A DNA stretch of 24,000 bases, taken from positions 127,243-151,242 of the forward strand of contig CAWDOQ010000017.1 of the NCBI GenBank assembly GCA_963804085.1, given 5' to 3'. Position numbers: made by a program. The DNA comes from Chlamydiia bacterium. GTDB taxonomy: Bacteria > Chlamydiota > Chlamydiia > Chlamydiales > Rhabdochlamydiaceae. Positions 3,001-6,000 of this stretch are shown here, piece after piece (within the stretch, counting starts at the first letter, position 1; every line of letters begins with the position of its first letter).

Positions 3001-6000
3001 CTTATCGTACGCATACAAGCGATCTGGAATGCTTTTTTGGCAATAGTTGAGAGCATTCTCTCCTGGTGCGGCGAGAAGATTCATGGCGTGGGTTCTCCTG
3101 CAGAGATGCCAGAAGGGTCGCTTCCTCTTAACCCTCCTCCCAAGCCAAGTGTGCCGCGCGGATGGACCGATTTAAGTGAGTGGTTTGCAGCAGAATTCGA
3201 CGCTGGTACTTGGTTGGAAAATCTGAATGGTGAAATGGTGCGTTGCCCTGTAGAAGTTGTTTATCAACCTGCCCGGGAAGCGTTAGTTAAGATTCAAAAC
3301 TATATCGACAGCAAACATCTGCTCCATTTTGTTTCCAATCCTTTCTATACGAAAGAGGGGAGCAATGGTGTGGAGAAGCTGCTCAAACTAGGCGCTGTTG
3401 CAAACTCACAAACAGAAGATGGCTTTACACCTTTGCACTGCGCAGTGCTCTCTAGATGTTTTTTAGCCTACCGTACGCTGCGCGAGCATGGCGCCGATCC
3501 AATGGCCTCAGCAGAAGATAAGACACCCCTCCAGCTTGCCGATAAAATTAAAAGATTGAGCTTCACCAGATATGCGGATTTTTTTGGGGCGTATGTACAA
3601 GCTCACGTAGCAAGGCTGTTTCCTTACGCAGTGAGGGCGACGACTATACGGCCTTTCGATCCGCCGGACCCCAAGAATTTAGGCACAGAACAAGATATCG
3701 ATCAGATCATTGCTTATGAAAAGAGGCTTTTAGACGACACTGAAAAACTCGTGATGGATACTTTGGATCAGTTAATTTCTCAACGCGTACTCGCGCTTGT
3801 CGTTGAGTATCTTCGAATACCCAACCACTGGTATGCTCAATGATACCCGCCGTTACCGCAACCAGTCCTGTTTCGCACTCATCTGTAGCAAAAGAGAACA
3901 ATTCTTGCATCTGTGCAGACATTTGCGTGCGTGTGCAAGCAGTCTGGAATGCTTTCTTAGCTCTTCTTTCCGACTTTATCTCTTATTGCGGCAGCTGGTT
4001 TGCTGCGAGCGAGCTGGCTTCTCCTGAGAGGGAGAGCGCGCTTGTTGCTCTTCTTGACAGGTATGAGCAGTTTGCAGACACAACGCATGTGCGTACTTGG
4101 AATGGGACTACGGTGATTAAGCACGATCCGATCCGTACAAGCGGGAACACTCTTTCTTATGCAGAGAAGATGGAAAAAGTGAGAAAGTGCATTACGGATG
4201 ACCGTCTCCTCTTTTTGGTTGCCAACCCCTACTACACTAGAGCAGGAGGAAATGAGAGAGATCCGGAAGCGAATAACCGCACGAAGCTGTTACTTGAACT
4301 GGGGGCAAATCCGAACCAGACGGGTCCCAACGAAGGGCACAGGCCGCTTCTCTATGCTGTCCTGACGGGCAGTTTTTTAGCCTACAAAACGCTGCGCGAA
4401 TTTGGAGCGCTCCCTGTTGTCGAGATCTGGAATCGTTTCAAACCTGGCACTCGTATACCTTTGAGCTACGTCGAATTGGCTGAAAATATCCTGCAAAATA
4501 AATTTCAAGATTGTTCCTCGATTGAGTACTACTTTACGAGCGTGATTCCTCTTGATGATTCGCGAAGTCATATCGAGTATAAAGACTTCATTCCCTACGA
4601 AATGATAAAAGAACATCCCAAGTATTTAGGAACAGACGAGGATGTCCAAAAGATGATCGACTTCGAAGACGCACGAGCTCGTGCGCGCAGTTGAAGAGAT
4701 CACAGAGCTCTGGCAGATCTCTCGCCCCATTGCAAATCTCATCGCCACATACAACGAGTACTACTGATTTCTGCAGCATTTTTCTCTGTGCTACGACAAA
4801 GTTTGAATGAGCTTTTATTAAACGCAAATGCAAAGCAAAAAATGGCGCCAAGAAATGGACTAAGTGGACGCTGTGGACTTTGGTGGACGCGGTGGACAAG
4901 CGCCAATTTAATTTTGATTCTTGGGCCCTGTCCACTTCGTCCACTAAAGTCCACAACGTCCACTTAGTCCAGTGTCCACTAGGCCCTCTTCATCCTCTTT
5001 GCGTAAACTAGAGTTTGGAGAATAGTTTTTAATGGGCGCAAAAGAGCCCATTTATTACTCTCTCTCTCATGGAAAAGGTCATTCTGGTCGATGCAGAGGA
5101 TAGAGAGGTGGGGGTCGAGGAGAAGCTAGCCGCTCACCTGTCCGGCAAACTCCATCGCGCTGTCTCGGTGTTTCTCTTCAATAAGAAGGGGGAGATGCTC
5201 CTGCAGCAGAGGGCTTTTTCTAAGTACCACTCGGGCGGGCTCTGGTCCAACACTTGCTGTGGGCATCCAAGACCGGGCGAGTCTCCGCTTGCGGCAGCAG
5301 AGCGCAGGCTGTGGGAGGAGATGGGGATCCGTACTTCTCTTAACAAGCTTTTTGACTTTACCTATAGAGCAGAGCTGGACAAGGGTCTTATTGAACATGA
5401 GTTTGACCATGTCTTTCAGGGAGAGTTTGAAGGGGCATTTGAGCCTAATCCGGAAGAGGTTGCTGCCTGGAAATGGATGAGCTTGCAAGACCTGGAAAAG
5501 GCATTACACAACGAAAGCGCGCATTTCACCTACTGGTTCAGATTGATTCTCCCAAAGGTAACGGCGCATGTTTAAAAAATTGATCTTCCAAGTCAAGGGT
5601 CAGGAGTGGCGTCTCTTTGGGCTGATGTTCTTCATCGTCTGTCTTATCAACATAAACTTTAGCATTTTGAGAAGTGCGCGCAACGCGCTTGTAGTGGCAG
5701 ACACGGGAGGGAGCGCCGCTTTTATCCCCTATTTCGAGCTCTTCGGCACTTTTCCTGCCTCGATTCTTTTGACATGGGGGCTGTCGCGTCTCATGCGCTT
5801 TTTCTCGGCACGCTTTATCTTTTCTATGACGATGCTCTTCTTTCTTTCGTTTTTCCTGATCTTTGCTTTTTGGATCTATCCGGAGCGAGAGGTTATCCAC
5901 ACGCTACTTGAGAACAAACTGGGTCAGCTCTTTGGCCTCACCCGCTTTAAGGTGGTCTTCACACACTGGCCCGACATGATCTTTTACATCATGTCTGAGC

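Follow-up and report, generated by a model that had tools for sequence, protein, structure and literature searches.

Foldback elements built from inward-facing GGAC/GTCC box arrays at the borders of effector-like genes in an environmental member of the Chlamydiae

This work deals with a stretch of 24 kb (hereafter the window) on the 235,140 bp contig CAWDOQ010000017.1 of an environmental member of the Chlamydiae and, in particular, with four large imperfect palindromes in it, named A, B, C and D, which carry phased GGAC boxes in the left arm and GTCC boxes in the right arm. They border two sets of genes whose products share an N-terminal module (N-module genes), namely a tandem array of four ankyrin-like genes and a single F-box-like gene. 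[quoted passage not shown] The elements occupy fixed intergenic slots and undergo fast turnover in them, through subfamily replacement, partial deletion and swaps of whole segments. The elements and the genes that they border are the following:

747-874, no strand: element A, an A-type foldback with units of ~9 bp (GGAC/CGAC/GACC plus an A-rich spacer) and a GAATTC centre
4844-4986, plus strand: element B, B-type foldback, each arm with five or six GTGGAC+3 units (9 bp)
21775-21971, plus strand: element C, C-type foldback whose (A/C)(T/C)GGAC units measure 10-11 bp
23101-23257, plus strand: element D, a decayed direct copy of C
971-1855, 1892-2926, 2923-3843 and 3840-4694, plus strand: open reading frames (ORFs) of the four tandem ankyrin-like N-module genes
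22074-23109, plus strand: F-box-like N-module gene, made of two ORFs (22074-22667 and 22681-23109) by alignment to the 341-aa protein P0127

Structure of the elements

An earlier note on this DNA, made from the sequence alone, had placed four elements beside the two N-module gene sets, and a box scan and folding confirmed them at those sites, with D folding poorly. The pattern GTCCN{4,8}GTCCN{4,8}GTCC has 13 matches in the window, all of them (13/13) within A to D, against an expectation of 0.00 from 100 shuffles. The periods given in that note were likewise recovered by Tandem Repeats Finder, ~9 bp for A and B (775-800, 820-862, 4864-4897 and 4930-4971) and 10-11 bp for C and D (21810-21838, 21879-21919 and 23182-23210). 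Each arm is, then, a short tandem array of GGAC-core boxes that face the dyad centre.

Element A is placed between divergent genes (a minus-strand S49 peptidase gene and the first ankyrin-like gene), has arms of 34 nt that are 82% complementary, and folds with -62.8 kcal/mol as RNA (z -9.6; z -8.2 as DNA). The arms of B are longer (51 nt, 86% complementary) and flank an asymmetric core, AAGCGCCA..loop..TCTTGGGCCC, with a folding energy of -87.6 kcal/mol (RNA z -12.1, DNA z -9.6). Element C starts 31 nt past the stop codon of a gene for an XRE-type helix-turn-helix (HTH) protein, ends ~100 nt before the F-box-like gene and folds with -94.2 kcal/mol (RNA z -7.5, DNA z -7.2), whereas the fold of D is no better than those of shuffles (z -1.5). 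D shares with C three blocks that are 89-94% identical (direct-repeat families D7, D9 and D10), has lost about two left-arm units, and its outer stem provides the last codons and the stop of the F-box-like probable pseudogene, so that the protein ends in ..VQVSSIKEGA*, unlike its homologues. The homology between C and D reaches beyond the palindrome, their cores have the same orientation and a single (pseudo)gene lies between them, and an origin of the C...D pair by duplication or recombination is therefore possible. Plus and minus strands of the elements fold about equally well, and G-U pairs show no strand bias; the equal folding of both strands favours a role at the DNA level or a bidirectional one.

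Slots shared with relatives

Relatives of the locus, given here as numbered loci (L001 and so on), were retrieved via the N-module proteins. L001 is 89.6% identical to the window over 2.8 kb and keeps the order S49 peptidase, element, ankyrin-like gene. At the A slot the flanks of both are ~97% identical, whereas the interiors of the elements are not alignable, and in L001 the slot holds a C-type element (77% identical to window D and 72% to C). An A-type element occupies the corresponding position in the distant relative L002, whose proteins are ~34% identical. L128 has its F-box-like gene in another genomic context, directly after a P-type ATPase gene, and the slot where the window has C is occupied by a B-type element, 80-86% identical to window B, which extends from the stop codon of the ATPase gene to 67 nt before the start codon of the N-module gene. 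Altogether, the F-box-like gene is found in four different genomic contexts in four genomes. Since one slot can hold different subfamilies and one subfamily can be found in different slots, the elements behave as an exchanging or mobile repeat family and not as fixed cassette ends. The lineage has at least three subfamilies (A-type with 9 bp, B-type with GTGGAC and 9 bp, C-type with 10-11 bp), and, judging from these alignments, the three predate the strain splits.

The B slot is polymorphic as well:

4775-5013 (239 bp), no strand: polymorphic B-bearing spacer, replaced by a hipBA cassette in near-identical strains

Positions 1-96 of L122 are 100% identical to window 4679-4774, and its positions 1770-3953 are 99.9% identical to window 5014-7197 (as are L123 and L124 over that window segment), but what lies between them (97-1769) is a 42-nt perfect hairpin and a 1.7 kb cassette with HTH_3, Couple_hipA and HipA_C, without B. 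L123 also has hipBA in place of the B spacer, and in both loci HipA_C is found directly before NUDIX. The contig of L124 begins exactly at the right junction (window 5014), and contig breaks coincide with elements in L002 as well as in L124. The window also contains the last 12 nt of hipA (tttggagaatag), so that its allele may go back to an ancestor with hipBA. Further away, L125 and L126 (TLC genes 85-86% identical) have the NUDIX-TLC pair without the ankyrin-like array and without any element. The case that would have spoken against the earlier note, bounded units fixed in position without any indel, is thus not what is seen across relatives: B alternates with hipBA, and A-type with C-type elements at a single slot.

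How could this turnover come about? Long palindromes would be sites prone to extrusion and breakage, and repair or recombination between box arrays would exchange the interiors of the elements and create hot spots beside accessory genes. If the palindromic and internally repetitive structure makes the slots recombination-prone in this way, both the swaps and the hipBA alternative would be explained. A different proposal is that the elements and their cargo form cassettes, in which an element with its gene integrates by recombination with a resident copy and leaves direct repeats around the cargo. It would fit the C and D copies, which are direct repeats ~90% identical with the same core orientation around a single (pseudo)gene, the four contexts of the F-box-like gene, and the B slot as the site where a hipBA cassette is swapped. 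We nevertheless regard it as very unlikely: A and B belong to different subfamilies that have only the boxes in common, the window yielded no target duplications, integrase or transposase, L122 retains the 3' end of the ankyrin-like array while lacking B, two loci (L127 and L461) have the gene without elements, and neither an empty site nor a circular junction was recovered. For the same reasons (different subfamilies, no direct repeats or target duplications seen, an array end without B), the composite mobilisable cassette A...B suggested earlier is unlikely, and a composite transposon in the strict sense was rejected too, with no recombinase and with C and D as the only similar copies. Nor did the elements drive the expansion of the gene family, as had also been suggested, given that the paralogues of the array are only 26-33% identical and abut each other (three of the four with overlaps) with no element between them.

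Association with N-module genes

The association was counted in ~98 kb, comprising the window and loci L001, L002, L122, L125-L128 and L461. All seven GGAC/GTCC elements (7/7) adjoin N-module gene sets, and none was found in the ~90 other intergenic regions. Five of the seven (A, C and those of L001, L002 and L128) are located 67-108 nt 5' of the first N-module start codon, and the motif TAAAATCTTTA comes soon 3' of the element in four of these five (A, C, L001 and L002), while the L128 element is followed by ataaTAAAAATTTTAat. The copies of the motif in the window are:

879-889, plus strand: motif TAAAATCTTTA, just 3' of A
22009-22019: repeat of the motif, after C

In L001 it lies at about 700-710 and in L002 at about 97-107. 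The motif or close variants of it (also present in L127, L128 and L461) appear 55-90 nt 5' of N-module start codons whether an element is present or not, and a promoter scan gave a match to the consensus only, TTGTCG-17-TAAAAT at 21986-22014. The motif is possibly the -10 or upstream (UP) region of a promoter type common to the N-module genes.

The association has, however, its limits. L127 and L461 contain F-box-like N-module genes with the conserved promoter-proximal sequence and no GGAC element, and in metagenome-assembled genomes (MAGs) of other Chlamydiae, elements of the same architecture are found beside lgt, surE, nqrB, Pom porin, dienelactone hydrolase and tRNA genes; others adjoin genes for LRR, WD40, SWIB and orphan proteins. 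Hence, of the link between elements and N-module genes put forward in the earlier note, its recurrence in the independent relatives L001, L002 and L128 supports a real, although not universal, association within this lineage, with the caveat that the relatives had been chosen by their N-module proteins, and the association fails for the wider class of elements.

The same note placed a 13-kb housekeeping core devoid of copies between the two gene sets. The absence stands, with no GGAC/GTCC array in a box-pattern scan between 4992 and 21771, but the interval measures 16.8 kb and is not purely housekeeping, because it includes unrelated palindromes and TPR paralogues.

Polarity and the wider class of box arrays

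The GGAC-left/GTCC-right arrangement had been taken as evidence that the arms are co-oriented with the genes. This is logically empty: the reverse complement of [GGAC..GTCC] is the same [GGAC..GTCC] arrangement, and it gives no orientation relative to any gene. The only true orientation signal comes from B, C and D through their asymmetric cores (left ..GGACAAGCGCCA, right TCTTGGGCCCnGTCC..), which all have the same direction. The L001 and L128 elements have a looser right-side core (TCTTGG, four bases and GTCC), and the five cores share the same direction relative to the adjoining N-module genes, although they are not independent samples, since they include orthologous slots and a duplicate. 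What the arrangement does define is the inward layout of GGAC, different from the opposite [GTCC ... GGAC] architecture, and this is a trait of the whole class. A scan of a genome collection with GTCCATT x3 gave at least 119 stretches, and among the matches listed, none of which is from the source genome, there are 31 inward array pairs against 2 outward (about 17 against 2 when counted by genome).

Among those matches, hairpins of inward ATGGAC(N3)/GTCCAT arrays are found in MAGs of Phycisphaerae, Chlorobiaceae, BRC1/Sumerlaeota, Cloacimonadota, Nitrospirales, Desulfobacterales, Lentisphaeria and several Chlamydiae (e.g., L021, L054, L071, L084 and L113). The usual unit is ATGGAC followed by three variable bases, which results in the 9-bp period. 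Among 355 units, all with GGAC because they were chosen by it, conservation is high for the neighbouring A (0.93) and T (0.87), while the 3-nt spacers vary. A closely spaced doublet of boxes is often present at the outer ends in Chlamydiae and Lentisphaeria, and in L017 and L030 the palindrome extends far past the box arrays. The two arms of L090 have spacers that are not complementary, yet box, period and inward polarity are kept. Of 31 elements with this architecture, 18 lie in tandem, 5 in divergent (A included) and 3 in convergent gene contexts, and 15 of the 18 in tandem contexts are nearer to the upstream stop codon than to the downstream start. According to a crude ORF caller, all 31 are intergenic except L021 and window D, the latter being flagged by an artefactual ORF on the wrong strand (D overlaps only the stop codon of 22681-23109). 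No recurrent family of neighbour proteins was found beside the elements.

As for the specificity of these arrays, control boxes (GCTCAT and CTGCAT) in viral contigs revealed that simple tandem arrays occur commonly whatever the 7-mer, and array matches alone are therefore not special; only the hairpin arrangement is, and it was seen at 0/212 control loci and, depending on the detector, at 2 to 4 of 120 GTCCAT loci. Hairpin arrays with other boxes occur seldom, at ~2 per Mb across the control loci. A metagenome scan for the core of B, C and D returned three chance matches only and no arrays.

In a Lentisphaeria MAG (JAPXLT01), the GTCCATT array forms one of the modules, a conserved one, of a mosaic repeat that was counted at 13 or more loci. 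These include L009, L050, L052, L058, L061, L065, L069, L072 and L101, and in the BIME-like mosaic a cacGGAC array and small REP-like hairpins (gccctgaaagggc) are combined with the GTCCATT array, which is highly conserved, and with a tail that is also conserved, ataaaaaatctttc.caaaaaagaaga.

The conservation of box and polarity makes protein binding the main rival explanation of the elements. According to it, a factor would read the (A/G)TGGAC boxes as two inward-facing oligomers, and the elements would be operators or enhancers that co-regulate the N-module genes. The conserved A and T next to each box in contrast to the variable spacers, the predominance of inward over outward pairs among the matches listed, the persistence of box and period in L090 without complementary spacers and the position of five of the seven elements 5' of N-module start codons are all in agreement with it, and an XRE-type HTH gene is encoded immediately 5' of C (although next to C only). 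Other observations make it unlikely: no candidate protein recurs beside the elements; the subfamilies that replace each other in a slot differ in box flanks, period (9 vs 10-11 bp) and number of units, as would hardly be expected of a tuned operator; a period of 9 bp does not match the helical repeat; B and D are at 3' ends; L127 and L461 keep the promoter without the element; and the spacers are mostly complementary between arms, which binding alone does not need. A broader version of the idea, which we hold to be distinctly improbable, is that inward (A/G)TGGAC box arrays, mostly of 9-bp units and with a tight doublet of boxes at the end, are one conserved cis-element of Chlamydiae, Lentisphaerae, Planctomycetes, Chlorobi, Cloacimonadota, Sumerlaeota/BRC1, Nitrospirae and Desulfobacterales MAGs, read by a widely distributed factor (either a polar protein that binds DNA or recognises ends, or a mobilising machinery), and recruited in this lineage as a module for upstream control and insulation of a private family of effector-like N-module genes.

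Comparison with known systems

No description of such elements in Chlamydiae, or of box-array palindromes, was found in the literature, and Rfam 15 at its gathering score gave no match in the window or on the elements of 18 loci of related architecture (at E <= 10, the C-D region has chance-level matches only). Several known systems are nonetheless similar in part. Like the REP/BIME (REPIN) of Proteobacteria, the elements are extragenic, non-coding and hairpin-forming, are divided into several subfamilies and usually lie just past stop codons; they also form mosaics in some genomes (the Lentisphaeria loci here) and turn over fast among strains at conserved intergenic positions. However, a REP unit is a single palindrome of 20-40 nt with a GTAG-type head that is mobilised by a RAYT (TnpA_REP), whereas the arms here are tandem GGAC units of 9-11 bp within elements of 128-197 bp, which sets them apart from REP units. 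With bacterial MITEs (Correia/CREE, ERIC, RPE and Nezha), they have in common that they are small, non-autonomous, palindromic, intergenic and polymorphic in presence and absence between strains, and MITE copies sometimes give stop codons to neighbouring ORFs, as D does. There are also similar copies at unrelated loci (C and D, ~90% identical, and the L001 and L128 copies in other slots) and an insertion polymorphism (B). Two other features of MITEs, terminal inverted repeats matching a parent insertion sequence (IS) and target-site duplications (the latter judged by inspection), were not found.

Drosophila foldback (FB) transposons are kilobase-sized eukaryotic elements with long inverted arms made of short tandem repeats, and a transposase is known in some of their copies. 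The analogy lies in such arms, in the variable number of units and in how little there is between the arms, with no evidence of homology. Finally, iteron- or centromere-type arrays (ParR-parC, omega heptads and MetJ boxes) likewise consist of phased, short and asymmetric boxes in direct and inverted groups near promoters, but they are single-locus systems with the gene of their cognate protein adjoining, while the elements described here are dispersed and interchangeable, with no cognate gene identified. Other candidates were dropped: DnaA boxes (with only the TCCAC core in common), CsrA GGA sponges (the boxes being buried in the duplex), and Pho/OmpR-type direct repeats, Chi-like polar sites, σ54 and -35 look-alikes and integron attC sites (all with a poor sequence fit).

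Possible function of the retained copies

If the elements are a repeat family of this kind, the retained copies are probably orientation-independent, bidirectional barriers in the form of hairpins or cruciforms. Past an upstream stop codon or between divergent promoters, such barriers would insulate the N-module genes from neighbouring transcription. Of the roles that the earlier note had considered, that of a regulatory bookend or insulator remains the most plausible functional reading, whereas the features of a canonical terminator, part of the same suggestion, are absent.

A set of observations weighs against a dispersed foldback family with this role. The strict association with N-module genes and the fairly constant spacing of 67-108 nt look more purposeful than would be expected from a selfish repeat. 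A and four other elements are found between divergent genes, where nothing needs terminating. In L090, box sequence and inward polarity are conserved in spite of unpaired spacers, which indicates recognition by a protein. No transposase, RAYT or integrase was found beside any copy examined, and no target-site duplications were seen by inspection at the boundaries of A vs L001, C vs D, L017, L109 and L120. There are no U-tracts after the stems, which are therefore not canonical terminators, and a consensus scan for intrinsic (Rho-independent) terminators, with a GC-rich stem of 5-20 bp and a U-tract directly after it, gave minor internal stems alone, not in excess of shuffles. With respect to mobility, the scanned ORFs of the 24 kb window include no Y1_Tnp or other transposase, and the ORFs between or beside paired elements encode LRR, WD40, SWIB, housekeeping or orphan proteins, without IS-linked terminal inverted repeats.

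Part of this evidence bears also on a role at the RNA level, in which the elements would be hairpins in the 3' untranslated region or close to the 5' end that terminate transcription or shield mRNAs from 3' exonucleases, as REP do in E. coli. The predicted hairpins of A, B and C, a single long one in each, are very stable, and the elements tend to be near stop codons: C lies 31 nt past one, D overlaps one, the L128 element begins at that of the ATPase gene, and the same closeness was seen in most tandem contexts. This possibility is, however, rather doubtful in view of the missing U-tracts and the minor internal stems just mentioned, the five elements (A included) between divergent genes, the lack of strand bias in stability or G-U pairs and the absence of an Rfam match, and it leaves the periodicity and the polarity of the boxes unexplained.

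The locus and its other features

The window has a GC content of ~47% and encodes core genes such as two TLC ATP/ADP transporters, a chlamydial DUF2709 protein, PGK, ArgRS and TsaE, among others. The gene labels of the earlier note are only in part tenable. The products of the four array genes share the N-terminal module and have weak matches to Ank, Ank_2 and Ank_4, but only one of the four passes the Pfam cut-off for ankyrin; three of the four genes overlap by 4 nt. The F-box-like motif (E 0.013) is below the Pfam cut-off, and its gene is split. The N-terminus of the F-box-like protein is 34% identical to that of the 971-1855 product over 59 aa (E 8e-6). Both families are tiny: among 5.8 billion proteins, the ankyrin-like one has 5 members, and either family no more than five or six relatives.

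Split into two ORFs with respect to P0127, the F-box-like gene of the window is probably a pseudogene. The copy of L128 (9739-10492) is disrupted too, by an early stop after ~60 codons, and the relative P0128 is truncated at 192 aa; from these alignments, the F-box-like N-module family seems to be decaying in several genomes. In addition, the 3' end of the ORF at 20770-21171 (21139-21170) is 75% identical over 32 nt (..VQVSS..A*) to that of the F-box-like gene (23077-23108), and may be what is left of a further member of the family that lay upstream of the HTH gene.

Other palindromes and inverted repeats of the window have a different nature. A nested palindrome occupies 7083-7367 (~285 bp); within it, inner arms of 39 nt (7195-7233 and 7262-7300) are 100% complementary. 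A copy of it, 82% identical, lies at an unrelated locus (L127 8209-8494), between HEM4 and HIT genes, and the contigs of L122 and L124 end exactly where the perfect inner palindrome of this family begins. It represents a second dispersed palindrome family, unrelated to A to D. A third long palindrome, nested and imperfect (16391-16555; arms of 46 nt, 74% complementary, and of 28 nt, 89% complementary), has no GGAC boxes and fills the spacer between a Glu/Leu dehydrogenase-like gene and argS. The longest inverted repeat of the window (6756-6811/8796-8851, 56 nt, 80% complementary) corresponds to the coding similarity of the oppositely oriented TLC paralogues. The interval between B and C also contains two or three TPR-repeat paralogues (18342-20552, minus strand).

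Significance

Environmental chlamydiae diversify their host-interaction genes (those with ankyrin, F-box and similar domains), and how such genes move and how they are insulated from core operons are poorly understood. The locus described here provides strain-resolved examples of hairpin repeats at the exact points where effector-like genes and hipBA are swapped. Intergenic palindromic repeats are already known; the part that could be new is the architecture of polarity-constrained box arrays across phyla, which has no Rfam family and no description that we found in the literature, and which recurs in several phyla with its polarity fixed. Should a cognate protein or a mobilisation mechanism exist, this would be a new system made of a repeat and its host factor. 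If there is no such factor, the elements would still be useful to mark recombination hot spots, and they would be a frequent source of assembly breaks in MAGs.

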